Of a DNA stretch of 64,000 bases, positions 9,401 through 50,030 are shown piece by piece. The first letter of the stretch is position 1, and every line of letters begins with the position of its first letter. Position numbers and translations under genes: made by a program. Source of the DNA: Azolla caroliniana (Eukaryota; Plantae; Polypodiophyta); NCBI GenBank assembly GCA_043228905.1, contig JBHGNT010000015.1, positions 6,386,001 to 6,450,000 on the forward strand, given 5' to 3'. The notes under the pieces are model-generated. The model was not told where the DNA came from, made no database searches, and worked only from the letters and a program-made list of their open reading frames with translations.

Positions 9401-12091
9401 TAGTTTTGATCGCAACCAAGTGGAATTCCTAGGGTACATAGTATCACCAAAAGGAATATCTATGGATCCAGCAAAGGTGCAAACAATTCTAGAGTGGGAA
9501 ACACCACAATTTGTGCATGATGTCCAGTGTTTCTTGGGATTTGCGAATTTTTACCGTAAATTCATCAGGAGCTACTCAAAGAAGGTGTTGCCTCTTACAC
9601 AATTAACACATAAAAACCAACCATTCATATGGAATTGGCATTCGAAAGCTTAAAACATGCGTTCACATCAGGTCCTATTTTGATCCATGCTGACCAAGAC
9701 AAGCCTTTTATTTTGGAAGGTGATGCATCATATTTTGCACTCGGGAGTGTCCTGTCACAACCCAAAGAAAATGGGCGATTATATCCAGTTGCTTTTCATT
9801 CGCGAAAATTTGAATCTACGGAAATTAATTATGAGATTCATGACAAGGAGCTTTTGGCTATTGTAGACTCTTTTGAGCATTGGCACCACTTCTTGGAAGG
9901 TTCTCCCATCAAATCATTGTCTATAATGATCACAAGAACCTAATGTATTTCCAGAATGCTCGAGTCTTAAATCGTCGACAGGCATGTTGAGCACAATTTC
10001 TTACACGCTTTGATTTCTTGATTGTGTATCGCCCCGCAATACACCAGGGAAAGGAAGATGCGCTATCTCGACGTTCGTACATGGCACCCTGTTTAGGGGA
10101 ACCTACTTTTCATCATCAAAAGCAGATCCTCCTTGGTCCTAATCGTTTACAAGTGATGGCCACTAATGCTTTTAAGACACCTACGGACTCGATACTTAGT
10201 ACGATTCATACTGATCTTGATGCAGACGAATTTGCCCAAGATTTCTTGAATCATATTATTCCAGATCGTGCTTCTTGTTCAAGGTCGATGAATTCTCGTA
10301 AAGATTATAATCGGTTCAGTTGGCATGATAATTTACTTTTTCGAAATAATTTTCTTTATTTCCCAGATGGCCACTCTCGACTCCTTATTTTACAACATTG
10401 CCATGACATGTCAATGGCTGGACATTTTGGAGTTCACAAAACATTCGAATTAGTTTCTAGAAATTATTGGTGGCCGCATCTTTGTAATTATGTTGAAAAC
10501 TACATTCGTAGTTGTGCTGCATGTTGTCGGTCCAAGTGTCCTCGACATCGACCATATGGTTTACTCCAACCCTTACCAGTTCCTGATAGTCCTTGGAATT
10601 CTATATCTATGGATTTCATTACTGATCTTCCATCTTCCAAAGGTTTTGATTCCATCCTTACTATTGTAGAACGGTTCACTAAGATGACACATTTTCTACC
10701 ATGCACAAAGACTATTAATAGTCAAGAGACATGGTTATGCGTGAAGTGTTTCGGCATCATGGTCTTCCTGATGACATCATTAGTGATCGAGGACCAAAAT
10801 TTATCTCAACATTTTGGAAACACTTGTTTGGGCTCCTTCAAATTGATTGTAAACTCTCTTCAAGCTATCACCAAGAGACAAATGGTTAAAATTACAGTTC
10901 ATTCTTACAACAATTCAGTTCATTCTTCTACCAAAATTACTCCCTTCTTTGCCAACACTGGTATTCATCCCTATTGGACAATTCTTGACCAACCAAGAAT
11001 CTCGAAAAACCCCGCTACGGAGGATCGCCTACGTCATATCCGAGAAATTCATATTGCTCTTTCTCATCATTTACATCACACTAAAACCACCCATAAGAAA
11101 TTTGTAGATCGTCATCGACTCAACTCATCACCGGAAAAACCCAAATTTCAAGTTGGAGATAGTGTATGGATCTTACGATGTAATGTGAAGACCACTAGGC
11201 CTTGTAACAAGCTGGATTATCAACGCCTTGGTCCATATTTAATCACTAAACAAATCAATGAAGTTGCTTTTCAACTCGATCTCCCTCCTCATATGCGTCT
11301 TCACGCAGTGTTCCATGTCTCACTCTTGGAACCTTATACTTCAAACTCTATTCTAGATCACGTTGTTCCCCCTCCACCTTCTATTGAGCTTGATGAAGGC
11401 CTAGAATATGAAGTAAAAGCCATTTTGGACTCCAAAGTTGTGAAGAACAAATTGTATTACTTTGTTGATTGGTTGGGTTATGCACCTGCGGATCGAACAT
11501 GGGAGCCAGCTAAAAATCTCAATAATACCAAAGAACTGGTTGTTGAATTTCATCAACGATATCCAAATAAGCCAACTCCTAGTTTGTGCATTGCGACTCG
11601 TGGAACTCGTTGTCAAAGGAAGGGGATAATGTCATGAACATATACCAAAACTCCAAGACTTGTAATAAGGATTCGAACCCATGACCTCTTCAAAGATAAT
11701 GTATAGATTCAACCACTATTAAATTGTAAATTCTTATATTAGATCAGGAAGAAACATATCTAATAGTGTGAAGCATTGCCACCGCATAGGCTGACGCATG
11801 ATTACCAAGTGTCATGCTTGCATGAATGCCAAGTGTTGCATGAATGACAAATGGCGAGCATGCGTGCCTATGAGGTGGCGAGCATGCATGTATCCAAAGC
11901 ATGTTATATAAACATATAGCGAACTATTGATGAACCATTCCGGTTGAACGCCAATCTTCGGCGTACTCTTGTAACCCATGTTCTCATTGCTAATACATTT
12001 TCAATATCTTATTTCTCTCTCATTCTTCTCTTATTTTCTATTTCTCATTCTTTTCTTCATTTTAAACTTGTCTTTGTCTACGACCCTGACA
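6405..12091 (+). mobile_element. Full-length Tcn1-like chromovirus (Ty3/gypsy) element D, coding regions disrupted
   Basis: LTRs 6405-6906 and 11630-12091 (TG..CA) with a perfect TSD ATCAT (6400-6404, 12092-12096). Gag 6984-8097 (PSKFDGTRS, PMEID, CLYCGGSGHIAISC). Protease ALLDS(R)A ~8252, RT YLDD ~9290, RNase H, integrase HHCC and GPY, chromodomain YEVKAILD..YFVDWLGY..RTWEP. PPT ~11616-11629. Confidence 0.95.
8085..8128 (+). promoter_or_regulatory. Putative -1 ribosomal frameshift signal at the gag/pol junction of element D
   Basis: G_TTA_AAG heptamer in gag frame, 7-nt spacer, then a perfect 10-bp stem TCCAACCAAA/TTTGGTTGGA. The protease lies in the -1 frame. Confidence 0.7.
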
Positions 12092-20887: not shown

Positions 20888-23800
20888 TGTAAAGGTTAAT
20901 ATGCAGAACCTTGTAGACAAAACGGCTCAGCCAGATAACAACAGTAAAACAATGATGAAGTTTTAATGGAAGCTTAAGAATACACTGTACACGGGAGAGA
21001 CAGATAGAGTAGAACAGTAAAACTAAATTCAAAAAATAATAACACTCTATGCATACAAATGTCCTACAAAACACTTTTTATACAAGTACTTTAAGGTCTA
21101 ACAGAAATATTGACATGTACTTCAATGCTCATATAAGTGACTAAACTAACTCCAAGGAATATGCCTACGTACTAGGCTCGAACCATAGGCTCCAACGGCC
21201 TACATGTTCTCATTATTCCGGAGTACGATCCGATTCTTTGGTCTGGCTCTAGGTTCTGGAAACCGATCTATTCGGACACTGATCCGGTTCTCCACTCCGG
21301 ATACCGAGCCGACTCTAGCTTATTTAGCCGACCCGAATCCAGTTGAGCTTGCCCGCTCAACACTCCCCCTCAAGCTCAACTTGAGAACGGATCACTATGT
21401 GTTTGTGCCTACTAAATGTTGCAGTCCACTTCTTCTAACGTCTTCACCCCTCATTCACGCTCCTCGACCTGTCCGATTCCTCTGCGTCGATGTCGACTTC
21501 CATTGCCTCCTCGTTTGTTTGGCCTTTAGTTGATCCGACTCCTCCAAATCAAACACCTCTTCTGAATCGGGTGCCTCCGATTCATTCCAACTCTTGTCCG
21601 AATTGGTTTTCTCCAATTCGTCTTCAACCTTCAGGCCCTTCACCACGTCCAGGTCTTGGCCTTCTTGTTCCGGTTGGCTCTGTCCTTCTTGATTATGCCG
21701 CCGTTGCCGCTTGTTCCGACTTGTTCGGATATGCCGACTTCTTCAGTCGACTTGGCTCCCATTTTTCTCTTGTTTCCCCATGTTTCAATCTTGTCCTTCT
21801 CTCAGGTTGCTTGTCCGGCACCATTACCTACCTTTCCGATTTCTGTTCCAGTTTCCTCCTTTCTCCCCCTCAAGTGCGGCATGTTGAGATGTTGAAGACC
21901 AAGCATCTCAAATAAATGTTGCAACTTGTCGGTTCCGAGTGCCTTGGTGAAGATGTGGGCAACCTGCCAATCCGTCTGGACATACCGGAGTTCGATTTCA
22001 CCGCCAAGGACCTGCTCACGCACAAAGTGATAATGTACTTCTATGTGCTTTGTCCGAGCATGGAACACGGGGTTCTTGGCCAACTGCATGCTACCCATGT
22101 TGTCGTAGTAGATCGGGATCGGAGTTGATACATCGATCCCGAGGTCTTGCAGCAGTTGCCGAGGCCATATGGCTTCACAGGTGGCAATGGTAGTGCCCTG
22201 ATACTCAACCTCAATGCTCGATAGAGCCACAATTGGCTGCTTTTTGCTGCCCCATGCAACAACAGCGCTACCTAGAGAGAACATGTAACTAGAAGGGGAC
22301 CGACGATCCAACGCATCACCAGCCAAGTTGGCATCCGTATAGCCAACTACCTTTTCAGCTATATTGTATCGGTATAACAGTCCCCAATCCTTAGTGCCGC
22401 TAACATACCTCAGTATTCGGTGTGCGCACTGAAGGTTCTCCGTGGTTGGCTTGTGCATGAATTGACTGATCGCTCCAACCGGATAGCTAATGTCGGGTTG
22501 AGTGATTGTTAAATAACTAAAGCTTCCGCCAATTTGTCGGAACCATCTCTTGTTGCAGACCGGTCCAGAGTCAGCACGAAGCTTGAGATTCCAGTCCAGG
22601 TGTGTGGAGACTGGTCGGCAATCCGTCATGCCGAACTTGTACAGCATATTCCATACACAATGTCGTTGTGAGAGCAATATGCCGTTGAGGATATGGATCA
22701 CTTCAATCCCAAGGAAATAATGGACTTCGAGGCCGCAAACCCCATCCTACGTAACTGGTGCATGATCTTCGAATTCTAAGCACGGGGGCTTGCTTCAGGC
22801 CGTAAAGGGACTGTTTGAGTCAGCACACTACCGACTTGTTCATCTCCAACTGAAAACCAGGGGGTTGGATCATGTAGACATGTTCTTCAAGGTCACCTTG
22901 AAGAAATGCATTCTTCACATCCATCTAATGAAGATGCCACCCCCTTGCCGCAACAACCTCCAGTACCACACGAACCGTCGTCATCTTCGCCACTAGAGCG
23001 AAGGTCTCGTTGTAGTACCATGGGTCTGCGCATATCCTTTGGCCACTAACCGGGCCTTGTACCAGTTGACCAAACCATCATCATTATACTTTACCTTGTA
23101 CACCCACTTGCACCCGATCGGTTTGCAATGTCAGGGAGGGTCAAGTAGGTCCCATGTGTCGTTGGCATCAAGTGCCCGCATCTTTTCCTCCATTGTTGCA
23201 CGTCCATTGCCACTTTGGGATAGCTCTCCGGCTCACGCACCTCCGCCACTTTCGTCATGTATGAATAGTGTGTACCATGTACTCATTATATTCGTACCTT
23301 TTTATGGGGTTATTCTAGCGGGTTGACCGGCATAACTTCACATTCGCCGATTGCAAGGACCTCTTGGCCTACTTGAACTTTGTTCCCGGAGGTCCGTATT
23401 CGTTCTTTCCGGAGTCGGTTTCGCTCTGATCCGACTCTTCTATGCCGGTGTCATACTCTGGCATCTTCTTCTTCCCCTTTTCTTTGCGTGTGAACCTTCT
23501 CCTCGACTCCTTGCGCGGGGAGAGCACGGTCAAGTCTTCACTACTCACCAGCTCATCATCTTGCTAGTCCTTCCGACTCAACTCTTCTCTCGTCCCGCTC
23601 AACCGGAATGAGATCGAACTCTCATCTAGAGTACCAAATCCTCCTCCTACTTCTGCCCGGATCTTTTCGGGCTCATTGGCCTCATCTTCCGGAATCGGGT
23701 TGGGATCGGGGGTCGGAGTCGGCAGAGAGTACCAAGATGTCGATTCGTCAAACTCGACATCTCGGTTTACTCGGTCAATCTTTGTCCAGGGGTTGTAGCA

Positions 23801-25733
23801 CTTGTACCCCTTCTGGTCATGAGAGTAGCCGACCAATATGCACTTCTCCAACTTTGGGTCCAGCTTCCTCCGCTTCTCATCTAGTACATGCACATAGGCA
23901 ATGCTACTGAATATCTTAAGGTGCCTTAAATTCGGCTTGCGCCCGCAATATAGCTCATGTGTTGACACCTTATGCCCGATCCGGTTTTGGATGTAGATGG
24001 CCGTCCAGATCGCCTCAGCCCAATAGAACTTGGGCATGCTCTTCTCCTCCAGCCTCACCCGTGCTGCCTCCACAATTGACCGATTCTTCCTTTCGACCAC
24101 ACCGTTTTGTTCCGGTGTATATCTGCAACTGAATTCTCGCCGAATTCCCTTCTGTTGCAAATAACTGTCGAATTGGTCAGAAAAGTATTCTTTTCCTCCA
24201 TCCTACGGCAAGCACTTTATCTTTCTCTTTGTTTCCCATTTGATAAGGCTTTGTAGGTTCCAAAAACAATCAAAGACTTCACTTTTCTTCTCAATGAGAT
24301 AGATCCATGTGTGTCGGTTGTAGTCGTCGATGAAGGAGACGAAATATTGGCTCCCGCCAAGCCTAACGTTCTGTGACAGTCCCCAAACATCCTGTTGAGA
24401 ATCAAGCTCAACATAGCACAACATGTGAACACACCTTTTGAGAATCTATGATTACTCAAAGGTCAAGAGTCACACCACTACTCTCTACACATTAACTATA
24501 TGTCATAGAATCATATTCTATGACACATAACTAATGAATTGCATATTCCCCGTGACTATGAGTATTCACATTCCCCAAGACAGAGAGTGGTTGTTGTAAG
24601 TTAATGAAGAGAGAGGGTGACTCTATATAAAGCACCCTCCTCATACTTCATACCAAGTCGGTTGTGACTCCTTATTATGCTACATTTTGTAATTCTTATT
24701 CTACTTGTGAAATATACACCTTCTTCTTGAGTATTCCTTTTTCTATCTATCTTGTGTTCTCTCATCTCTCCTCTAATTCCTCTCACACATACACATAGCA
24801 CACATCTCTTCCGCTACACAAGAATCACCATTGATTCTTTACACATCCAAATGTATTAAATCGAGCTTGTTACGGCTCTAGTTTCTTTTGGTGGGGAACG
24901 GAAGCCGATGTTGCTTCCCGAGTTGACATGCTTCACAAATTTGGGCCTTCCGGCCACTAAATTTTGGTAGTCCGAATGCAACATGTTTCATCGGCAAGTC
25001 TTGAAGCCTCTGATAGTTGAAGTGGTTGATCTGCGTGTGCCACAAGTCGATATCCGACTCGACTTTGTGTCCTTTTGTGAACAAGGTAGTGCCTACATCA
25101 TTGGTGTCGAGGATGAACATCCTCCCGTCCTGGCGTCCTTGCGCGATCACTTGGCTCTCTTCACCGATGAAGCACCTGATGTGCGTAAACGGCACATGCA
25201 TCCCCTGGTCGACGATCTTCCCGACCAACACCAGGTTCTTTATGATTTCGAAAACATGAAACACGTTCATAAGATTCCCTTTTTTTCCAACATGATTCGA
25301 GGGAACTTCTCCGACATGCACGATCGGGTGAGGAGTGTCATCTCCAGTCTCGACAACTCCCGGTTGCTCCGGCTTTTCCAAAAATGTGAACCACTCTTTG
25401 TGGCTCATCATGTGGTTAGACGCTCCGGAGTCAACGTACCACACTTCCTCCCATTCGACTTGTGTTTCATCACAAAGGCTGGCCCTTTTTCGGTCTTTCC
25501 GGTCTCAGATTCTTCCTATCCTTCAGCATCTTGCTAGATCTGGATTTATCCAAATCGACACGCTTCTTCCAGCACTCACTCTCCCGATGGCCTTTCTTGT
25601 CATAGTACCAGCATTCCACGTCGACCTTCCCTTTCCGGTTTCCGGCACCGATTTGACTCCCCCTGCTTGTGGAGGGTCCATAACTACTATCGTCACCATC
25701 TCTATACCTTCGGTTCTACTCCAACCGGCAACT
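20888..25733 (-). mobile_element. Ty1/copia element E, 5'-truncated
   Basis: 3' LTR 20888-21362 and PPT 21363-21371. RT/RNase H ORF 21802-22701 (TDANLAGD, HARTKHIEVHYHFVRE), INT 23564-24390 (PEQNGVVERKNR), protease WYVDSGASNHM ~25440 and gag knuckle ~25570-25620. Confidence 0.85.
24393..24843 (+). mobile_element. Solo LTR (copia-type, 451 bp) inserted in the integrase of element E
   Basis: TGTTGAGAATCAAGCTCAAC...TTTACA, TATATAAA at ~24624, perfect TSD CATCC (24388-24392, 24844-24848). Confidence 0.9.
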
Positions 25734-28700
25734 CTGATCAGGCCGACCGGATAGCTGAGGTCCGGCCAAGTGATTGTCAAATAAATAAGGCTCCCGACAA
25801 TTTGTCGGAACCATGTCAGGTCGCACGCCTCTCCCGAATCGCGGCGAAGCTTCATGTTTCTGTCTAAAAGGATGGAGATGGACTTACAATCTGCCATCCC
25901 GAACTTGAAGAGCATATTCAACACATAATGACGTGGCTGATCAATATGCCTTCGGGGGTTTGGATCACTTCGATCCCAAGGAAGTAATGAAGGTCCCCCA
26001 GATCCTTCATCTCGAATGATGCCACAAGTTGAGACTTTACTTGGCTGATTTCTTCGAGGTCGGCACTGGCGATGACTAGATCATTGACATATAGCATAAG
26101 GCTAATCGGTCCAGTCCGACTCGGGCAAATGAATAGTGATGAGTTGTGTGATCTTCGCATTCCATCCATGTGGGGCTTGTTTCAGTCCATACAATGACTT
26201 CTTCAATCGACAAACTACCGAGGTGTGTCGTTCGGATAGAAATCTCGGGGGTTCTACCATGTATACTTGTTCCTCAAGATCACCTTGCAGGAATGCATTC
26301 TTTACATCCATTTGATGTAATTGCCACCCCTTTACCATTGCTACCGCCAACAATACACGGACAGTTGTCATCTTCGCGACCGGTGCAAAGGTCTCATCGT
26401 AATCGATGTCATGTTTTTGTGCATAGCCCTTCGCCACTAATCGGTCCTTATATCGGTTGACTGAGCCATCGGCATTATAATTGACTTTGTACACCCACCT
26501 ATATCCGATCGGCTTCACACCCTTGGGGGCATCAACCAGGTTCCAAGTCTGGTTCTCCATTAGCGAGCGCATCTCTTCCTCCATAGCAGCATGCCAATTC
26601 ATGCCTTTGGCCGCTTCTGCATAGCTCTCCGGCTCACGCACATTTTCCACCTTCACCATATATGCATAATGATGCGCCATATACTCATTGTACACGTACC
26701 AAATTACATGATTCTTTTGGTGGGTGGATCGAAACAACTTCTGGTTCACCAATTTTGTGGCCCTCTCGGCCGACTTTGACCCCGTTTTGGGAACCATGAA
26801 GCTTCAGGTTAGATAGGAGCTCAGCAACGTCCAACAAAGAGACATGTTGATGGCTTACTACACTCCAAGATCAAGGAGATCTGCAACTCTCTCACCTTCG
26901 TCAACATGAACATCGAGGAGGACGAAATGGTGCAGGTTTTCCTCGAAGGGTTGACGTTGAAGTTCGGAGCATTCTGAACGGTTGTTTGCATGAGGGAGAA
27001 TGCGCCTTCGTTTTTCGAGCTACAATCAATTTTGCTCATAGAAGAAAACCACTCGGGTGCGTCGATGAGTACGCACACCGGTAGCAAGATGTTGTACACG
27101 GAGGCAAATCGACCCCGTGGTCGTGGTGGACGAGGTGGGTCAACACGTAATGGAAGCGGCCGACAGGAGCAGAACTCGAGGCATAATCGAAATGCCGACA
27201 ATAGTTCTGGACCTCCACGGGTAGGGGGAGTCAAGGTGGTGCCGAAGGTCGGCAAGGAAAGGCCGAGGCGAACTGTTGGTATTGTGGTTGGAAGGGCCAC
27301 AAACCGAGCGAGTGCTGGAAAAAGCGAGCCGAATCGGAAAAGGACAGATCAAGCCGAGGAGACGCAGATAGGCGTAAGAGATCGCACTACGCCAAAGGCT
27401 CACAGGGCAAGCTGAAATAGGCCCAACCTTTGTGATGAGGCACAAAACCAATTCAATGGCAGTGAACACCTCAAGGTCGAACGAGGTGTGGTATGTGGAT
27501 TCGGGCGCGTCAAACCATGAAGAATCACAGTGAGTGGTTCTTGACTCTAGAGAAGCTGGAGCAGTCGGGGGTCATCGAAACTGGTGATGACACCCCTCAC
27601 CCCATCAAACACATCAGAGATGTCCTTTGAGCCATGTCGGCCAGAAGGGAATCATGAGAAATGTCTTGCATGTCCCCACAATCACCAAGAATTTGGTGTC
27701 GATCGGACAGATTGTTGGCTAGTGCATGCAAGTTCGATTTACTCATCTAAGATGTTTCATTGAGGAAGAAGGCAAGATCATTGCGCAAGGGCACCGAGAA
27801 GGGAGGATGTTCATCTTCGAAACGAATGATGTAGGCATCACTATGTTCGCCAAGGGGCAAAAAATCAAGTCGGACATCGACAAGCGGTTCGGCCACGTCA
27901 ACTTCCCGTGGCTTCATGAGATGCAAACGAAAAATCTCATTTTCTGCTTGTCGAAATTCATTGGCCGAAATGGCCAAGTCTACGAAGCCTTCCAGGTAGG
28001 GAAGAAACATTGACTTCTATTCCCAAATGAAAGAAATCAAGGCCAAAACAAGCTTGATTTGATCCATTTGGATGTATGGGGACCGACGCAGAATGTGAGT
28101 ATCGATGGAAGTCGTTACTTTGTAACCTTCATCGATGATTACACTCAGCACACTTGGGCGTGCTTGATTGAGAAGAAAAACGAAGTCTTCTCCTGGTTCT
28201 TAAAGGTGAAGAACCTTGCTGAATGGGAGACATGCCAAAAAATCAAGTGCCCAAGGTCTGATGGTGGGAAAGAGTACTTTTTTTACCAGTTCTGTAGTTA
28301 TCTGCAAAAGGAAGGAATTCGATGTGAATTCTCCTGCAGATACACGCCACAACTAAACGGCGTGGCCAAGAGGAAGAATCGGACGATCGAAGTGGCGGCC
28401 AGGGCGATGCTTGAGGAGAAGCATATGCCTAAATTCTATTGGGCCGAAGCCATCAAGACGGCGGTATACCTACAGAATCAGACTTTTGCAAATGGAGGAG
28501 TGTCGCCAAACGAGATGTATTTCGGGAAGAAGCCGAATTTGGCACACTTGAGGGTTTTCGGTAGCGTTGCACATGTGCATGGGCTTTGGAAAAGTGGAGG
28601 AAGCTGGACGTGAAAGCCGAAAAATGTATCTTGGTCGGCTACTCGGATGAGCAGAAGGATTAGAAGTGTTATGACCCCCACACGAAAGAAGTCTGAGTAA

Positions 28701-29643
28701 GCCGAGATGTCATTTTCGACGAGTCGACTTCGTGATACGTGCTTGCACCTTCAACTCCCATCCACTCCATTCCGAATTTTGAGGATGAGGCCAGTGAGGC
28801 CAAGATGCCCCTTGATGAAGAGGATATCGGAACTCTAGAAGAGAGTCTGATCTCAATTCGGTTAAGTGGTCCGAATGAATGACTGAGTCGAATGAAGAGC
28901 TAGCGAGTAGTGGAGACTCGGTCGTCCAGTCCCCACACCAGAAATCGAGGAGATGATTTACGTACAAGAAGAAAGGGAAGATGAAGATGTCGGAATATGG
29001 CATCAAGGCCGAAACGTTGCATCATTAGTTCCTTCGACATAACTCCAATAACCGTGCTCGAGTAGGTACTAGTGCAACATAGTTGCTCCTATCGAGCTTT
29101 TCGGTCAAAAGCAAGCTTCCCATTCCTCTATCCATGTTCCTGTCTTTTCTTTTCCGAAAAACGAGAAACTTGACTCTGTCTTGTACGCTTGCTTTTTTGT
29201 CAGCTGCAGAGGAGTCTCAACCCTCACACTTTGATACCATGAAAAAGAATATGTGTGCGATAGACACTGAGTAGGCAATTGATTTCAGAAACTGGACAGT
29301 TAGGTAAACACAGAGAATGGTGTGAGAGAGAGAGACAGAGAGAGCAGACGATAACTTCAATTTCGAATAATGAACACTCTGTACATACACTGTGCTCAAT
29401 GAGCACTTTTTATACAAGCCCCTGACTAGTGGGCTAACACAAGTACCGGCAGTACTTGAATGCTCATAAATGAGCCTAACACTAATTATGCCTACAATAT
29501 TCCTATCTACCATAATAGGAATATAGGCCCTCAATAGCCTTTTTGGAATTCTTTCGACTTGGCCCACCCGAGTCGAACTTTCTTCAATTTGGCTCCTTGC
29601 CTTCGTCAACCGATTCAACCCATGTTGAGTTTGTCTCTCAATA
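25734..29643 (-). mobile_element. Second copy (F) of the copia B family, 3'-truncated, with an internal 2.2-kb inversion
   Basis: 5' LTR 29240-29643, PBS TGGTATCAAAGT 29228-29239, gag start (MDRGMGSLL) on minus. Gag-protease-INT lie on plus at ~26798-29020 and RT on minus at 25734-26797. Confidence 0.85.
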
Positions 29644-30810
29644 GAAGTCTTATGCACACGATGGAGGTGACCCGACTAGACCGTGCCTATGTCGTAGGGG
29701 TCACCAGCCACTACATGTCCAAACCCATATGGAAGCACTAGGAAGCTATGAAAAATATATTCTGGTACTTGGCTGAACCAAAGATCTATAGCTAACCTTC
29801 AGATCGGACAAGCCAACCGAAATAGAAGGTTTCACATATTCCGATTATGCCAACAACCCCAACAATCGGTAGTGCATGTCAGGATATGTCTTCACCTATG
29901 GCGACGTTGTTATATCGTGTAGGTCAAAGTTACAAGACTGCATGGCACTCTCAACGACAGAGGCTGAGTATATAGCTGCATCAAAGGTAGCCAAAGAAGC
30001 CATTTGGTTACACCGATTATCGACCGATTTTTCCACTAAGAGCTGAATCGACTATCCGGCACAGACCTTATATTGCGACTCTCAAAGGTCAATACACCTC
30101 ATCCAAAATCCGGTGTACAATGCAAAGACAAAGCATATTGAGGTGAGGTAGCACCATATCTCAGAGCTTGTCACCGACAAGAAGCTCGACGTCCGAAAAG
30201 TGGATACTGAGGTGAACATCGCTGACAGCCTGACGAAGCCTCTCCAAATCAACCTTCAACATACTAAGAGGATAGATGGGACTACAACAAACAAGCAAAC
30301 AAAGAGGAGCCGAACAAGAAGAATTGGAAGGTAAGTCAAGAAACAACACGGCTAGAGAACTCGAAACAGCTAAGAAGGAGTTGGACAATTGAAAGGTTGT
30401 AGACGTAGCTAAGCACAAAGGAAGCCGACAGAATGGAGGATAGTTGAAAGGCCACGGGAATTGGAAGTCTATCATTGGTCCATCAGAGAGTACAAGGACC
30501 AACATACACAGGGAGTCGATGGTCCAAAGGCCGAAAACCGAACCGGCTACTAATTGATTTGGACAACAGCAGAATTCGGCTACCACCCGATAGTCTTGTA
30601 GCATACAAGTTGTAATTCAACCTTACGAGTAAGATAACCCAGTTGTATGTAAAATAGAGTAGTCATTTTATGGGGGAGTTTGTTGGCATAAAAGGATGAC
30701 TCTAGCCAAACTTGTATCTCTAGTGTGAACACAGTTAACCTAACTATTTAAGTAGGTAACTGATTCTGCTAAAGAAGTTTGGTGGAAATAGAAACATTGA
30801 TTCTCTTTCA

Positions 30811-30863
<53 letters not shown>

Positions 30864-30900
30864 AGTTCACTCCGGCCATTGTTTCTACATTCTATAACTC
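29644..30900 (+). mobile_element. Ty1/copia 3' fragment (RT end, RNase H, 3' region, PPT, partial LTR)
   Basis: Broken frames give SGYVFT, ALSTTEAEYIAAS..AKEAIWL and KTKHIEVR. PPT GGGGGAG 30672-30678 and LTR start TGTTGGC at 30681, with (CT)n at ~30817-30862. Confidence 0.8.
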
Positions 30901-30918
30901 GTTGGAAAGATCTTTAAC

Positions 30919-33900
30919 TTGATTTCTCTTCAAGAAACGATAAACAAGCAAGGTGAAGAGATTAGGACGTTAATGAAAAAGAGAATGCTAAGCTCCAAAT
31001 TGTTGTCATTGAGAATGAAAGTCTTAAGCAAGTGGTTGCAAAACTGGAAGAAGAGATTCAAGAATGTAAAAGAGCTTCTTTCGAAACAAATGAGCGCCTT
31101 AACAAGATTAAGTTAAAGGAAGCATTAAAAGAAGAAAAATTGGACATGATGAGGCGGGATGTAAGTGAGATGAAAAATGTAAGTACAACGAAGTCATGGG
31201 CTGATGTATGTGGTGCGGATGTGGTATCAAAATCATCTAATATGCATGACATGCATCAAGAGAAGAATATAGAAAGCATAGATGTTTGAGAATTGAAAGA
31301 ACGTGAACAAGAACATTGTCGTCCGTGGGATTAAAGAGGAGAGTATGGAAACACCCGCATCCCTCGGAAAGGCCATTGGTGAATTTTTTAGCATGCATTA
31401 TGGGATGTCGGATGTGAATGTATATGGGGCACACCGAGTTGGGAAACATGGTGTTACTCGCTCCGGAGAAAGGCCTATTGTATGCACAATGACAGATGAT
31501 ACAAAGCGGCGGATCATACTCGAAAATAGTTGGGTATACCTCAAAGGTACGCAATGCTTTGTGAGTGAAGATCGTACGATCTCACAACAAAATGATCGTC
31601 GTAAAGCATATAAAGAAAGATTGAAAAATAAGGTTAAGGATGTGCCTAAAGATGGAAATGTAGGCAAATAGGGACATGTACCCTATGAGACTAACCCACG
31701 CCTTTTATTACTATGCTTTTGTAATTGCAATGGATACCCATGGAATGTGGGATTTGGCATAGAGGATTTCATTGATGACTCGGATATCACACTTCTTGTT
31801 GAAACATGGGAGCATCATACTCAAAGGATTCACGGTTTAGGAAACTATAATGTACACTCTTTGATATGAGAGAAAAATCGAAGACAAAGAAGAGGACAAG
31901 GAGGGGTGGCATGTTTGATTAAGAAGGAAGTAGAGAAATATGTGCCAATCATAAAAAATAATAAACATGAATAGTACATTTGGCTCAAAATAGAAACACC
32001 TAATGATTTGCCCACTTTTGTAGTTGGATGTTACATTCCTCATCAAGATTCTAACGTTTATGCTTGTTTGGATAAAGATCAACCTTTTGCCAATCTAGAA
32101 GATGATATTGTTTATTTAAAATCCAAAGGGGAAGTTATTGTTTTTGGTGACATGAATGCTCGTACAAGAAGTTTCCAACTTGATTCACAAGAATCTTTCA
32201 TGCCACATATCTCAAGGATGCAAGAGGATATGCAAATGTATAGCCACTCTTCTAGCAATGAAAAAGATCTAGACCAATTTGGGAAGTTACTCCTACAAAT
32301 GTGCAATAGTGCCGGATTGCTTATTGCAAATGGTATTTACTTATGGCCCAACACTAATCGTTTTACGTGTAGAAAACTTAACCAGTGTGATTGACTATGT
32401 GCTACTTTCCGAAGGTATTTTGGATTGTATACATAAATTCTCACTTGGTGAATGGACACCGAAATCCGATCATAGGCCTTGTATTGATCTCAAATGTATG
32501 CATAGGTTTGATTGTGAGAATGTTATTGAATATAATAAACAACCGCACTTGAGCATGAACCTTAAGCGAGCGCCCATATATTCCAAGATGGTTGAGGATA
32601 TGTTACAAATGACAAAGATACAACATGGTGCCACACTAGAAAGCGAATGGGAAGCTTTCAAGAAAGGCATTCTCTCATGTACAAACAAACGTTTTTCGAC
32701 CAACCACACATCTTGGAAATGCACCAAGAAACTTGGGAAAAAATGGTTTGATAAAGAATGTCATGAAGCTCGAAAGTGCCTTATGGTTTTGGATGTAGTT
32801 AAGGATAAAGAGAATTACCAAAAGCATCTGCATGAGTATAAAAGGCTTATTCAAAGAAAGAGAAGAATATGGGAAGTTACTCAACAATTTATCCAAACAC
32901 AAGAGAAAGCACATGCATGTGCTAAATTTTGGGGAAATCTAAAGGGGAAATGTGTTGAGAGTTATGGTGACTTAATTCTTCATGACATGTCTATGCATTG
33001 TTAGAATTTATATGAGTTATCTCTTGCCGGAAAGATGATGTGTTATGGTTCTCTTTCACATATGTCTCCTTTCTTTACAATTGAAGATATATGCATAGGA
33101 CTTAAGAAATTGGCCTCTCGAAAGACAAGCGATCTTCAATGTATAAAGGTTGAAATGCTTAAATGGACGGGAAAGGAAGTATATGTATGGATAAGCGATA
33201 TGTTTAATGATACATTCCAACATAGTATGCCGTATGATTGGATGACAAATTGGATCAAACCTTTACATAAAGGTGGAGATGTAAATAATGTAAACAACTA
33301 TCGAACCATCATGGTTGGCTCATTAATGGCAAAACTATTTGGATGTATAATGGAATCAAAGGTAAGTGTATGGGGTGAAAAAAATGGTAAGAGAGCTTAT
33401 GGACAAGCTCGCTTTCGAAAACACCATAGCACCATTGATCACCTTGTCACCCTTTGAGTATTAATGGAGGAAAGTCGCCTTAGAGGTAAATGTTTATATT
33501 GTTGCTTTGTAGACTTCAAGAAAGCTTTTGATATGGTACCTCGTGAGCATCTTCGGAGGCGAATAGAAGAACGTGAGGTGCCAAGTGAATATATGCTTGC
33601 AATTTCCCGAATTTATGAGAATTTTATATGTTGTGTACGTATGAGAGATAGACTTTCAGATTTTTTCAATAGCACTATTGGTGTTAAGCAAGGATGCCCA
33701 CTCTCACCAACACTATTTGGTCTATGCATTGATGAATTGGAAGAAATGGTTACCAAGTTTTCAAAGGAAGAATGTGTTGAAGAAGTTGTCATTGGGAATG
33801 TTGTGATTATGCTTTTGCTATATGGAGATGATGTAGTGCTTTTTGCAAATACTTTAGGAGATGCACAAAAGCTTATGAAGGCATTGGAAAAAATATGTGT

Positions 33901-35120
33901 GCATACTAAATTAAGTGTCAATAGCTCTAAAACAAATATTACGCTTGTGAAGAGCCAAAAAAGAGACAAACCATGCATTATGTACAACAATGAGTCACTT
34001 GAATGTGTGGAAAGCTTCAAATATCTTGGCCTTGAAGTTCCTTCAAATCATAGATGGAATGAATGTGCTACACGCCGCTTAGAGACAGGTAAGCGAGCAT
34101 ACTATGCATTTGAGAACACATGCAATCATGGAGATATTATGTGTTGGGTCCTCAAGAAATATCTTTTCGACACTTTGGTGACACCAATTCTTCTTTATGG
34201 GTTGGAAGTATGGGGTGGTAGCATCCCTAAATCTACGTGGAAAGAGTTTGAAAATGTCCAAAAACATTTTCTTACAAAGTTTCTACAAGTTAAGAAACAA
34301 ACACCCTACACCCGCCTCCTTGAGACAGGATCGCTTCCCATTGAGATCATGGCCATGGAAAGGGTTGTTGAATACATGCTTAAGGTTCAAAAAAATCCCT
34401 CACATTGACTTCCTAAAATTGCATGGGAAGCAAGTAAAAAGATCCAAAAGACGCATAAAAGCAAATTTTTGTGTTCCGGTTGGATGCAAGATATAGAAAA
34501 ATGGTTTGGTCGATGGGATGCGAGACACTTGCTTCATGATGCATCACTAGATTCCTCTATATAAATGAGACATTTTTGCAACGCCAATGTATCATGACAT
34601 GGAACAAATGTGGAGGCTCACGCTTCACACATTATACTACACATGTTGCACCTAACTACAAAACCATATTCTTTGCGAAACGGGGAAACCGTACACATCA
34701 ATACATGTTAGAGCCCATCTTGTTATCTGTCATTCGAACCATTGCTTCCATGCGACTTAGCTCACATGCATTGTGATGTGAAACAGGGGATTGGGGCACA
34801 AGTGATGAGAGTGGTCGGCTATGCACACTTTGCCCTAAACAAATTCGTGAGTCTGAGTATCACACTTTGATACAATGTTCTGCCTTTGATCATATTCGAC
34901 CATGCTTTCCACATCTCTTCGACCGAGCCCAATCCTTGCACAAATTTCTCTCACAACCAGAATGTGCACTCTCAATTGCAACATTCATTAGTAAAGTTAT
35001 TCAACATCAAGAGTCACTACTTAGTTTCACACGTATCACGTGAAATGTAATATTTTTGGTCTCATAGGTCATATTTGACCTCTGAAGACGATAATATAAT
35101 CTATCTATCTATCTATCTCT
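30919..35120 (+). mobile_element. Near full-length non-LTR retrotransposon (LINE, RTEX-like), disrupted
   Basis: ORF1 ~30919-31671 has a coiled coil plus NIVVRGIKE..HRVGK..RPIVC. ORF2 31672-35043 has AP endonuclease (LVETWE, GDMNAR, SVIDY, SDH), WFDKEC, RT (GVKQGCPLSPTLF, YGDD) and a C-terminal CxxC..H..C. A 3' hairpin and (CTAT)n tail end the element at 35099-35120. Confidence 0.9.
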
Positions 35121-35199: not shown

Positions 35200-36500
35200 T
35201 GCTTGACGCATCAATAGTTCCTCATAACTTTTGCATCACATATATGTGGATGACTTGGTAATTGGTAATGAACACATTGCTGACATCAACAAGATTAAGA
35301 TGCTCCTCTTTGGGAAGTTTGAGATGAAAGATATGAACAAGCTTCATTACTTCTTGGGAATCGAGGTCATTTGAACTAGGAAAGGCATCTTGCTTTCCCA
35401 ACCCCACTATACCTTGAATCTTCTCTTCAAGTTTGGCATGAGGGATCACAAGCCCATTTCGACTCCCCTTGATCGTAACTTGATGTTGCACTTGGACTCC
35501 ACCAAAACATGTGAGTTGACTCAATATATGGCAAATCATTGGGAGTCTAATATATCTAACTATCACCCGACTCGACCTTAACTATCTGATCGGCCTCCTT
35601 AGCCAATTCATACAAACACCATGTCACACACATTTGAATTGTGTTAAGCAAGTTTTACGATATGTTAGTGGAACCATGGATTGAGGTATCTTCTAAAAGG
35701 GAAGAGCGACCATTCGTCTAGCAGGATACACCGATGCCAATTGGGCCAGTAGCATATCCAATCGACACTCAACATCCAGCTTCATCTTAGAACTCATAAG
35801 TGGAGCAATCCCATGGAGCAGCTAGAAGCAACCGACACTTGCATTGTCACGCACCGAAACTGAATACAAGGGCACGGCCATAGCCACATGTGAAGCAATT
35901 TGGCTAAAGTAGTTATTAAAGAACTTTAATGAATTGATTGACGGACCAATACATATCTACTGCGACAATCAAAGCAATCCAGTTTTCCATGCCCGAACGA
36001 AGCACATCAAAGTGCACTATCACTATGTTCGAGAACGCATCATCGTGGGAGAAGTCGATCTCCAACACAAGACACCAACCACCAAACGGCCAATATCTTC
36101 ACCAAAGCGCTTGGAGCGAACAAGCTTCAACAATTTTTTATGGCGCTTGGCCTTCGGCCACTCGACATCTCAAGCTTGAGGGGGAGGGAAGCCGAAAGTC
36201 GGACAAGAGCTGACATGAGTCGAAAACTGAAAGCGATGGAAGCCGAAAGTCAGAAGCCGAAATCCGAAATCCGAAAGTCAGACACCACACGCCGAAAGCC
36301 GGCAATTGCGAAAGCTGACAACACACTTGAGCTTGATGGGGTGTGTTGAGATATCAAGTTCAACTAGGTTTAGTCATTTTGTCAACCATGTAACTTAGTA
36401 GTTACATAAATAGAATCTAGTTAGTATGTTGACTACCAAACTCATTTATTACACGATATTCTCTTCCCACATGTGCACCCTTGCACATGAGATGTATATA
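35200..36500 (+). mobile_element. Ty1/copia 3' fragment (RT, RNase H, 3' region, PPT, LTR start at 36344)
   Basis: FEMKDMNKLHYFLGIEV, YTDANWA and HARTKHIKVHYHYVRE motifs. TGTTGAGATATCAAGTTCAAC begins the LTR, whose right boundary is uncertain. Confidence 0.8.
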
Positions 36501-42259: not shown

Positions 42260-43974
42260 CTCTACTCTCTCTCTCTCTCTATATATATGCAAAATCTTCT
42301 TCCTGCTTTAAAATTCCCCTCTTGTCTCTTACTTCTCTCTTTCCAACTGAATTCTCTTCCTTCCATTCCCTTCATGTTTTACTCTTGTCATTTAAAAACC
42401 TTCTCTCTCTCTCTCTCTCTCTCTCTTTCCCCCCTAACTTCCACATACAGATTACCACTAACTGCTGCAAGAATTGTATTATTATTATTATTATTAAAAA
42501 TCCTCAAATTCCTTTCTTCCCTCCTGCACCACGCTACCGCCATAGCCAAACCCCCCCCCCCCCCCCCCTTTTCTCTGTCTGTCTGTCTGTCTGTTTGTCT
42601 GTGCTTACATTAGCCCAACTACACGCAGCGTCACAAAAAAGTCAGCGACCCTCCACCATTCTTTAGCTGTCGAATCGATCTATCTATCCTTCTGTCTGTC
42701 TCCATTCACACAGGAAACCCTAACATCACCATATCCTACGAATTCCAAAGCTCTCTTACATTAAGTCTGCACACCACGTATATATGTATATCACACACAC
42801 ACACACACATTTAATATAATACTCTCTCTTTCTCTCTCTCTCTCTCTCTATCTGGCCTGCCTCTCTCTGCCTTTTGATCTTCTGTGACTGCAGAGTACAA
42901 CTATGGCAGCTGCATCGCCATCACTTCCACCAGTACCTTTTCCCCCCCAGAGATGATGATATATTATATATATATATATATATATACATACATACACACA
43001 CACACATTTTCCTTCTAAAACTTGCGTTACTACTACTACTTCTTCTTCTTCTTCTGCTGCTGCTTTTACTTACATACTTACACAACACAGAAGTTCTCAT
43101 TAATTCTATTTGTTCTTCCAGCAAGCTGCAACAACCTGCAGGGGCGTTGTTTTGCTTCTGAGTTTTTCTCTGATCATCAATCTCTGTGCCAGACCTCTCT
43201 CTCTTTCTCTCTCTATTTTCTGCAGAGAGATTGGCCATTAAACACTAGGCCAGTAAGTAAAGTACTACGGTGCTTCTCTCCTCCATATATATATATATGT
43301 ATATAGCAGCGCAGAGCTAGCTACGCACTGACCTAATTCTCTGTGGGTTCTGTCTCTGTCTTGGACGTAGCGTCTTGGCGGTCGCGTTTGTGTCTATATA
43401 TATATGCACACAGACTGCAGCTATGTCTGTGTATATTTACGTGTCACGTGCCTGCCAACCTGATTAACTTCTATAACTGCAGGGTTATAAAGAAACCATA
43501 GCCATAGCCATAGCCATAGCCATATAGCCATAGCTAATAACCCATAAAAGTAATGCTGCTAGCCATGTGGTCGTCATCAGCAGTACCTTCTTCTTCATCA
43601 GCCATCATCATCATCATCATCATCATCATCATAGCCATCATCATCATCATCATCATCATCAAAATCAGCCATCCACTCTATATCCATACGTTGGTTTCTC
43701 TGCAGAACTTCATGCGCGCAGCCCTCAGTCCTTTCGTTATGGGAATAATAACAAGTCTGCCGAGAAATGCCGTTTCTCTAATTTTTTTGATCTGTTGAAG
43801 CAGAAAGAGCGTCAGCTTATCAATAAAGTTTGCAGCTGATTTACCTTGATCCTCGTTCTCATCTTCATCACCTCCTTCGTTATCCATTGTCATCATCATC
43901 ATCATCATCTTCATCACCTTCTATTCTGTTGATCGTCTCTGTAGCAGAGAAGAAAGAAGAGATTTTTCGTAACC
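42260..43974 (+). promoter_or_regulatory. Probable promoter / 5' UTR of the WOX gene, rich in (CT)n, (CA)n, (TA)n, (GCCATA)n and (CAT)n microsatellites
   Basis: Directly upstream of the ATG at 43975. CT-rich tracts are typical of plant 5' regions. ACGTG motifs at ~43438-43450 and TGTCTC at 43351. TSS not determinable. Confidence 0.45.
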
Positions 43975-46900
43975 ATGTTTCCAGTGAGAGATGGAGATTC
44001 TGAGCAGAGGCCGAGGCCAAGGCCTAATGTGGTCTATGGCGAAGAAGATCGAATGGTTGTTATAAGGCCATCTCCCCACCTCCTTAATTCGCAGCATGCT
44101 CCTAACAGCACAGTGAATAGTCCTCACCATGGCATCTCTGCGGCACGCCATAGCCTGCAACAGTATCGCGACATTCACAGCATCGAGCAAGATCATGATC
44201 ATGATCATTCGACCGGATTTCATCAGCAATTTCAACTGTCGTCCCTGCCATTGAACTCGGTTAATTCTGCCTCGGATTCTCAGTCCCTGACAGATCACAT
44301 GGTAGCTCCTTACAAGCAAAATTCTAGCGGCAGACATGCTAATTACATTCCGAGTAATATGGACGAAGACGCGTTACTGATGAACCCTACATCATCGTCG
44401 TCGTTCTTGCAACAGGCAGATCACACAGGTCTTAATGCTTCTGTATCAGGTTATACTACTGCTTATAATCATAGCCAGAGAGATCAAATACTGCAGAGCT
44501 TGCAACGAAGCAATGGTCTTCTACCTGCATCTGATCAGACGCAGTTTCAACTTCCTCGTGAACAGTTATACCATCCATTAAGTAGCAGTGGTAGCTATGG
44601 CATAGATAACTATAACAACAATAATGGTAACAATAATAGTAACAATCATATGCTCATGAGCCTGCGCGCTAGCAACTACGGCTATGGCGGCTCTGGAAGC
44701 TCGTCGAAGAATCAGTTTTATGGTGCTGGTAATTATTCTCTTCCATATCCATTCGATCTGAGAATGATGCATGATAACGCCAGTCCAGTTAACAAAGATG
44801 ATCTTCACGAGCTTCGACAAGCAGAGTACGGAGCTATACTTAGCCCCCTGCAGCAGGGAGCATTGCCTTCTACATACAGTAATTCTGTGTTGAGCAAGAC
44901 ACTAGAGAATATAGGAAGATCCACAGGCTCATACAGTACTTCAACAGCAAACACAAACGCAAACACGGCATTAACTGGCACAGGGTCGCCGAAGCCGATG
45001 GGAGCAAGTAAGAAAGAAAACTCCATAGCTAGAACCTCAGAACCTTCTACTCATGATGATTCCTTTTTCTTTTTTTTTCTGGTGTAGGCAGTGATGATTC
45101 TGTTTTGAGCATTTTGTTTCCATTGTTTTGATAATCGATCTGATGGTTGCATTGGCATGATGGGATCGATCCGCCTCCTCCATGGATTGATCTGATCTGA
45201 CTATGATAATGATGATGATGATGATGATGATGATCTGTGTTTCAGGGGATCAAAGATACGAAGAAGTCTGTACACCCAGGCCGCGATGGTGCCCAACGCC
45301 GGAGCAGATTCAGATACTAGAGTCGCTGTTCATCTCTGGGACGACAACGCCGTCACGTGATGCCATCGTGGACATAGCTTCTCAGCTCAGGAAGTATGGC
45401 ACCATCGCTGAGGCCAACGTGTTCTACTGGTTCCAGAACAGGAAGGCTAGGGCAAAGAGGAAACTGCAACCCCCTCACCAGTCACAGTCTCATGACATTC
45501 TCATTGGAAACGCCATGGATCCTCATTCTCATCATCGTCATCAACAGAACAAGCATCCATCGTCGTCTTCTTCCTCTGCAGATCATCATCACCATCACCA
45601 TCGCTGTGACGGTGATGCCCCACCTGTTGAATTAGTGGAGATGAAGAAGCAGCAGCAGCACAAATCTCGGAAGGTGCAGCAGCCTGCAAAGAGGCCCCGT
45701 ACTAACTCTAATTCGGCCACCAGGTCCACTGCTAGTAATACCACCGCCAGTGGTCATGGCCATGGCGGCCATGGCCATGGCGGCGCCTCCAGCTCTGAGC
45801 AATCTCTCGACAAGGGCAGTGGTGGTGGAGGAGGTGCCTGCTCGTCCATGATAACGCCATATCCATCCCTACCTGCACAGCTTACTCAAGCCGACAGACT
45901 GATGTGCAGCTCCGCTCAGACGCCTTCTAGTGTTAATTCCTCCGCGCTTCATCTGGTTGAAGAAGCCATATCTGAACCGAATAGTTATAACGTGGCCTCT
46001 GCGAGCGGTTCCAAGAATCCGGATCTTCAAGTTTCCATTGATTCCGCGTGTACAGCCGCAGTTCCTTCTGAGAGTACAGCAGCGACTCCAGCAGAGCGGC
46101 CTGATCATTCTTCTTCCTCGCCATTCTTGCACTGGCCGCTGCAGCAATACGTTAATCATGAAGAACGACATAGGTCTGCAGAGCTCCATCACCATAGCAG
46201 CAGCTGTGCTAATAATACTACTGATGACGATGCCATAACCACTCCTTCTGCTCGCCATCCTTATGATATGAACAAGCTCATGAGCTTCCATGGTTCCATG
46301 GCATCTTTCTTCAGGCGGCCTGATGCAGCAGCTACCTCCGCATTACCTAGTTGTGATTCTAATGCTGCTAATTATGGGATGATTCTAAACACTGCTGATC
46401 ATTCTCGCATCTCTCTGTCTCTTGCTCCCCCTGCACAGCATCAATTACAAGCAGGTCCGCCATTGCCGCAGGACTCCTGCAGTCGTATGTCTGCATCAGA
46501 TCATAACTCATCATCACCATCATCGGCGATTCATCCCCACACTCTCGCCATAGCTCGAAGCTACGAAGATCACCCTCCCGACCATCAGTTTCTTCAAGCA
46601 ACCATGAGGAAAGGTAAAGAAATCGGCATCACCTCTCACTCTCTTTCTTTCCCTCACTCACCGTCTTTCTGTCATAACTCAGAGATGGGAAACCGAGCCA
46701 TTATGATTCCTGCTAATAACTAACGGTACTCCTCTGATCAGTCCATTCTCTGTTCATTGGAGACGAATATGTCGCAGGTCGAAAAGCCGCAGCAGTAGTC
46801 TGTGGTGTAACTGTAGATCTTCTTTGTCTCACAGAATCTGTTACGGGTCTCTATCATCTTCTGTCAGGCTCTCTTGCAGGGAGAATCCTTTGTGATCTAT

Positions 46901-49871: not shown

Positions 49872-50030
49872 GAGAGAGAGAGAGATTTTACTATATGGCT
49901 TTGGAGGTCAAATATGACCTATGGCAGCAAAAGTGAATCACATTCACATAGTATGTGGAATTGAGTAGTGATTCTCAAGTCCAAGAGTATTAGTGATAAT
50001 GCAAACATGACCAAATAAACATATGGCCTT
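49872..50030 (-). mobile_element. Short 3'-terminal fragment of a LINE related to the 30919-35120 element
   Basis: The minus strand reads ..ATCACTACTCAATTCCACA...CATAGGTCATATTTGACCTC...AATCTCTCTCTC, matching 35010-35120. Confidence 0.7.

Follow-up and report, generated by a model that had tools for sequence, protein, structure and literature searches.

A decayed two-ORF LINE in the Azolla window

The window, a stretch of 64,000 nucleotides from Azolla caroliniana, carries on its plus strand a decayed, slightly 5'-truncated LINE with two open reading frames (30863..35118), recognized by translation, by an RVT_1 match (E 2e-24) and by the intact relatives P0003 and P0004, which share 74% and 69% RT identity with it, respectively. 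P0004 matches both Exo_endo_phos and RVT_1 above cut-off, and the closest named protein to the RT piece of the window is from Adiantum nelumboides (74% identity, 81% of the piece covered). The ORF1 remnant (30863..31668, by profile and translation) features a coiled coil followed by an L1-like RRM and C-terminal domain; its profile matches human LINE-1 ORF1p structures (E 7e-4), and Pfam names no family for it. Frameshifts and stops interrupt this remnant, while its final 124 codons are open and in frame with ORF2. The translated ORF2 remnant (31672..35043, ending at TGA 35041-35043) harbors an APE endonuclease, an RT and a C-terminal Cys/His knuckle, and the element closes with an (ATCT)n tail (35099..35118). 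This combination of APE and RT in ORF2, coiled coil and RRM in ORF1, and a repeat tail is that of an APE-type non-LTR retrotransposon. We presume that it is RTEX-like, a label based on architecture; the RT tree contains no named LINE clades.

Between the two frames lies a stop in the type III readthrough context UAG-GGA (31669..31674). An earlier, sequence-only reading of this DNA had placed TAG 31669-31671 in frame with both the end of ORF1 and the start of the endonuclease, with no Met between, and this is borne out: the first strand of the endonuclease begins 16 codons past the stop, and no in-frame ATG precedes it. Shortly downstream, a segment at 31678..31694 (+10 to +26 from the first stop base) is complementary to 35056..35072 near the 3' end, 3.4 kb away. 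The 13-nt match with one G-U that had been reported between 31682-31694 and 35056-35068 lies at exactly those coordinates. Its 3' partner is also the 5' arm of a terminal two-part hairpin (35059..35089), a predicted RT recognition site that folds as claimed (z -3.57, equaled by 1 of 200 shuffles) and shows compensatory changes in relatives. A second copy of the hairpin core had been placed at 49908-49923; the inner hairpin is present, but at about 49905-49920 and on the minus strand, within a fragment of a related copy (49872..49975, minus strand; 107 nt, 75% identity, no ORF2 match). Being a 3' end only with a broken outer stem, this fragment offers no test of the long-range pairing.

Besides TAG 31669, the LINE copy in the window has stops at 31867, 31972, 33002, 33455, 34406 and 34774 and two frameshifts in ORF2, and is dead. 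The first question is therefore whether TAG 31669 is itself a product of decay.

Several other features surround the element. A short motif ahead of the repeat tail (35087-35094) is common to most families though the tail unit varies, and is likely part of the RT recognition site. (CT)n microsatellites abut element ends in the window (30815-30862 and 49872-49885) and at the ends of L001 and L060, which hints at a target preference. The LINE sits between copia-like pieces, amid LTR-retrotransposon debris; fragments that look by eye like gypsy- or copia-type LTR elements lie at 7128-11637, 21802-27348, 29500-30270, 35250-36000 and 60608-62968. Open frames at 43945-46723 (plus strand), including a WOX-like homeodomain seen by eye in the translation, apparently represent a host gene. 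One raw RNA run yielded 17 partial reads, which have no bearing on expression.

The in-frame stop is fixed in the family

Family state at the junction was read from short contigs. In the contigs of all four runs, from four related organisms, no other letter reaches 2% or more at TAG 31669-31671. The decay stop at 31867-69 served as an internal control and is TGG in about 99% of the depth, where summed contig depth does not equal copy number and contigs clipped at a variant cluster after the stop are under-counted. CAG or TGG at 31669, which a methylation-type nonsense mutation would leave in most copies of a once continuous frame, does not reach this threshold.

Three family positions depart from the window sequence: 31677 is C (73-95% of depth), 31680 is G (at least 99%) and 31681 is A (about 99%). 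G31680 and A31681 mend the mismatches at +12 and +13, which lengthens the complementarity to 17 contiguous pairs from +10 to +26, two of them G-U, with the 3' partner sequence in this helix taken from the window's own 3' UTR. Position 31678 is G in the family, so that the family majority reads GTG at codon 3 past the stop; an ATG ahead of the endonuclease appears in some loose contig ends only.

Junction layout among related elements

Relatives were sought with a set of 25 aligned, intact ORF2 proteins; from metagenomes, the best 80 of 401 confirmed loci were used. A scan of genome contigs added 47 loci, and in 17 of these a junction or a 3' end was looked for; among these 17, L082 alone had both ends, and L084, L090 and L091 had 3' ends without a junction. 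Scans of viral contigs returned zero and one loci and were uninformative. Many bacterial MAGs in the genome collection hold eukaryotic LINE contigs (L082-L128), a sign of binning contamination.

The resulting set comprises 27 junctions, including the window, from 17 families: 19 were found automatically, two with a relaxed motif and six by hand or motif, and L013, L059 and L060 were excluded as truncated or decayed. Families were grouped by a quick RT tree with SH-aLRT support only, are mutually related, and include L082 from outside the tree. In all 27 junctions, a stop lies in frame 9-22 codons upstream of the endonuclease Asn motif. The shared frame with ORF2 is built into the junction method; a long ORF reaching the same stop is not, and at least 96 open in-frame codons precede the stop in 14 of 27 (with another frame just as open in L053). 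Nine ORF1s that could be aligned are homologous and end in frame, yet their tails differ by more than 100 aa. Close to the N-terminus of the L003 ORF1 (L003:293-1579) is a weak NF-YA-like segment, which narrowly passes the Pfam cut-off (CBFB_NFYA, E 2e-6) and may have been captured from a host.

The stops occur in a narrow range of contexts. UAG-GGV, UGA-CGG and UAG-CAA, which correspond to Beier-Grimm types III and II and to the opening six bases of type I (PMC13517186), account for 14, three and two junctions, respectively. This strict total of 19 of 27 compares with a background of 2.8% among 32,409 stop triplets. Near-class contexts (UAG-GA or UGA-CGA), defined post hoc after the data had been seen, add five for 24 of 27, against a background of 7.3%. 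The remaining three junctions fall in no readthrough class, and two of these are TAA-GG in decayed copies. Across junctions, the stop and its context switch together among the three viral readthrough classes.

The layout is not universal among matched elements. It is absent from five that have an endonuclease start (L044, L054, L058, L077 and L107), where one to nine open codons and a Met lie upstream; the first four fall in the outgroup of the tree. Longer proteins that might fuse the two frames were sought with a junction-spanning search; it returned two matches, both to ORF1 only, and is weak evidence.

These junctions bear on how ORF2 could be translated. One idea, raised by P0004, was that ORF2 starts at an ATG lost in the window copy; it was dropped, as the TAG is fixed, codon 3 is GTG in the family, and 18 of 27 junctions (11 of 17 families) have no in-frame ATG in the linker. 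A broader alternative is termination followed by reinitiation at an ATG or near-cognate codon just past the stop, with the long-range helix positioning or masking the start. Codon 3 is GTG in the window family and L009, ACG in L002, and ATG in L031 and L069, so that an ATG or near-cognate occupies it in families A, C, K (L009) and N and in one E copy; gene callers likewise start P0004, P0031, P0033, P0034 and P0044 near codon 3, although their M may be GTG. An in-frame ATG stands somewhere in the linker of nine junctions, within the first three codons in L031, L069 and the frameshifted L041, and in or adjoining the first strand in the other six. There is also precedent in SART1, whose coupling requires a downstream structure, and in L1, which reinitiates unconventionally (PMC5972666). 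Reinitiation would have no need, however, to hold frame through linkers of 9-22 codons. The families lacking an in-frame ATG also argue against it, as does the want of an obvious codon-3 start in L003, L045, L051, L053, L072 and L073, and the stop contexts fit three classes of readthrough. We consider reinitiation unlikely, and favor readthrough of the stop to yield an ORF1-ORF2 fusion.

Complementarity between the post-stop segment and the 3' end

Within the window element alone, complementarity of this length carries little weight. Stems of 13 bp that include no more than one G-U occur somewhere in 24 of 25 shuffles of the 4.2-kb element (mean 3.4, compared to five in the real sequence). Between the two fixed windows, such a stem occurs in none of 3000 shuffles, but these windows were picked after the finding had been seen. 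The case therefore rests on relatives.

Both ends were available for 16 elements of nine families, or 17 elements of 10 families with the held-out intact L082; L007 and L072 fall outside this set, as neither could be assigned a terminal hairpin and tail. For each element, contiguous stems were sought between +4..+30 and the final 45 nt, and the best one was compared with two sliding controls of about 440 and 220 windows. The element's own stem tops every sliding window in both controls in eight of 16 (the window, L001, L002, L023, L025, L066, L051 and L073), representing six of nine families. When families were permuted against 3' ends, two of 362,880 arrangements were as good as the true one, with the identity counted. 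A family's own 3' end is the single best of nine in five of nine families, since D, E and F have a core in common with others. When mismatches are tolerated, the best tile of the whole element lies at its own 3' end in 11 of 16 elements and eight families (11 of 17 and eight of 10 with L082). In the other six of 17, the best partner is not at the expected 3' site: L038, L041, L045 and L069 are decayed copies of families that otherwise show the pairing, L050 represents family I, and the last is L082. Sister contigs pair as well, L031 with L030 over 14 bp and L008 with L060 over 13 bp; no such pairing joins the L003 junction to the 3' ends of L011 and L020, its neighbors in the tree.

The pairing sequences themselves change in concert. 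Three-way matched changes at +16 (L001) and +20 (L001, L002) preserve pairing in the long-range helix as well as in the local hairpin, and L066 differs from L023 and L025 by a matched G-C to A-U change. The partners in L051 and L073 are wholly unrelated sequences that span the ORF2 stop. Family-majority bases make the complementarity longer than in the window copy, and it reappears in distant families, built from other sequences. In all positive families, stems of 9-17 bp begin at +9 to +14, mostly at +12. At L051:4165, L073:8382 and about L091:7430, the 3' partner and terminal hairpin overlap the ORF2 stop, leaving a 3' UTR of about 20 nt.

The local hairpin is likewise retained. Across 13 3' ends of the window clade, pairing is seen in 73 of 78 cells of the inner stem and in 44 of 52 of the outer, with loop length chosen per sequence to maximize pairing; pairs were counted by anchor because MAFFT misaligned the 3' ends over loops of differing length. 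In every positive family, the partner overlaps the terminal hairpin stem and includes bases unpaired in the hairpin. Those to which the post-stop segment is complementary lie in the internal loop, where they are invariant, in families A-C, and in the terminal loop in D, G and H. Since the partner overlaps the hairpin and matched changes occur in both helices, both folds appear to be selected and cannot coexist.

Folding energies were less informative. Cofolding fails to separate positives from the negative L050, which also gains, and the 92 nt after the stop in the window fold locally no better than shuffles (z -0.14), with local folds varying among families. In four elements, the best post-stop partner lies 410-434 nt downstream, within the endonuclease coding region (L007 +414, L009 +420, L082 +410, L072 +434). 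These partners span 10-13 bp in L007, L009 and L082 and are weak in L072, and other tiles of the GC-rich L082 are almost equal to its +410 partner; they may represent a shorter-range variant of the stimulator.

Pairing and readthrough need not be linked. Local context alone could drive readthrough, with the helix serving circularization of the RNA for RNP assembly, hiding of the 3' hairpin, protection from decay, or repression. Readthrough contexts do occur without a 3' partner in L082, L050 and probably L003, and type I contexts require no structure; type III contexts, however, generally require downstream structure (PMC13517186), and in every positive family the helix starts within +9 to +14 instead of at varying distances. 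This reading seems to us improbable beside stimulation of readthrough by the helix. It is more doubtful still, and by a wide measure, that the post-stop segment is a direct repeat of a protein-binding sequence resembling the 3' arm of the hairpin. The two are indeed alike, since both complement the same 5' arm; the post-stop segment also complements loop bases that are unpaired in the hairpin, which the 3' arm does not. Finally, a methylation-type nonsense mutation in a single ORF with a chance 13-mer, conceivable in a copy with so many decay stops and for a stem length expected somewhere, is refuted for practical purposes by fixation of the TAG, the family permutation and the same layout in intact relatives and across the 27 junctions.

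A putative readthrough switch

Stems near +12 like those of viral stimulators, the two-state hairpin of CIRV and the stem-loops of stringent LINEs together lead us to favor helix-stimulated readthrough. The shared frame, fixed stop, context, complementarity and matched changes are direct observations. The mechanism drawn from them we consider probable, at some distance from certainty: an ORF1-ORF2 fusion would be made by stop-codon readthrough, stimulated by a predicted helix between a segment starting about 12 nt from the stop and the element's own 3'-terminal hairpin. The readthrough switch proposed in the sequence-only reading is, in this respect, supported by comparative data.

In the translation state, the long-range helix would form at +12, where the stimulators of MoMLV, VEEV and CTFV begin (PMC13517186). 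Most ribosomes would terminate and release ORF1p, and a few would read through. Formation of the helix would open the terminal hairpin, so that the folds exclude each other and the RNA would switch between states: new enzyme may bind the refolded hairpin and prime reverse transcription at the tail. RNAs missing the 3' end would be expected to yield little enzyme.

A wider proposal, which we hold with slightly more doubt than belief, is that a widespread LINE lineage makes a Gag-Pol-like fusion by readthrough that is self-licensed through its own 3' hairpin, which then refolds into the RT-binding site. A single switch would fix the ORF1p:ORF2p ratio, keep truncated transcripts from yielding enzyme, impose cis preference and pass the RNA on from translation to reverse transcription. 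If true, this would be a plus-strand virus strategy in a cellular retrotransposon; enzyme synthesis would be tied to template integrity, giving a simple basis for cis preference; the predicted ORF1-ORF2 fusion, of about 165 kDa in an intact family such as that of L001 or L002, could join ORF1p trimers; and annotation pipelines would miscall the ORF2 start in this lineage. The mode of ORF2 translation is a long-standing open question in LINEs, and the pairing offers a well-defined RNA element that can be mutated and for which compensatory variants exist in nature, so that both readthrough and its link to the 3' end are directly testable.

Comparison with known systems

Reviews attribute LINE ORF2 translation to reinitiation, coupling, frameshifting and 2A skipping (PMC5972666, PMC5009743, PMC3894237). 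Pairing between stop and 3' end in LINEs was not found in the literature searched, which covered few subscription papers and no Repbase Reports; the accessible parts of PMC8226300 and PMC10294476 describe none, and "readthrough" has no occurrence in that of the latter. The sequence-only reading had presented the whole arrangement as not known to be described for LINEs. This stands for the pairing but not for readthrough of the ORF1 stop, which had already been proposed for Paramecium tetraurelia non-LTR Group 3 (PMC5405496); the new part is the long-range pairing.

Among LINEs, Paramecium Group 3 is similar in carrying ORF1 and ORF2 in one frame, with readthrough proposed from a consensus. It belongs to a separate ciliate clade, however, and no RNA stimulator or 3'-end pairing is described for it in the accessible text (PMC5405496). 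SART1 and L1 also express ORF2 from a bicistronic RNA, in SART1 with a required downstream structure, but do so through an overlapping stop-start or a 63-nt spacer and produce a separate ORF2p rather than a fusion (PMC5972666). RTEX and stringent-type LINEs share a full ORF1, APE and RT, a short-repeat tail and a conserved 3' stem-loop (PMC3905857, PMC3747384), which in stringent LINEs is thought to be recognized by the RT (PMC3747384); the accessible parts of these papers describe neither readthrough nor long-range pairing.

Viral systems offer closer parallels on the RNA side. MoMLV gag-pol and the alphaviruses and coltiviruses share the context classes, a structure at +12 and a fusion of structural protein to polymerase, whereas their stimulators are local (50-180 nt) and are not the 3' recognition site of the template (PMC13517186).

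The nearest match is the PRTE-DRTE system of tombusvirids. In CIRV, readthrough depends on a 3.5-kb pairing together with a mutually exclusive 3' hairpin that sets readthrough against replication, and a dual-luciferase context failed (PMC3234231). The LINE resembles it in its UAG-G context and in a predicted stop-to-3'-end pairing over about 3.5 kb, and would do so in mutually exclusive 3' folds for translation and replication and in a polymerase fusion product (PMC3234231). Complementarity between stop and 3' end with compensatory change is found in 11 of 17 elements and eight of 10 families, and the two 3' folds overlap with three-way covariation. The LINE differs from CIRV in integrating into DNA and in its helix of 9-17 bp, compared to 6 nt in CIRV, starting at about +12 (PMC3234231). 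The tombusvirid proximal element lies in the bulge of an extended local stem-loop, which is absent from the window LINE; no significant local stem-loop follows its stop, and its predicted helix would invade the terminal hairpin itself. Overall, the complementarity is a real and conserved feature, and a known viral mechanism is predicted in a new kind of element: the LINE system would work like PRTE-DRTE without being a member of it.
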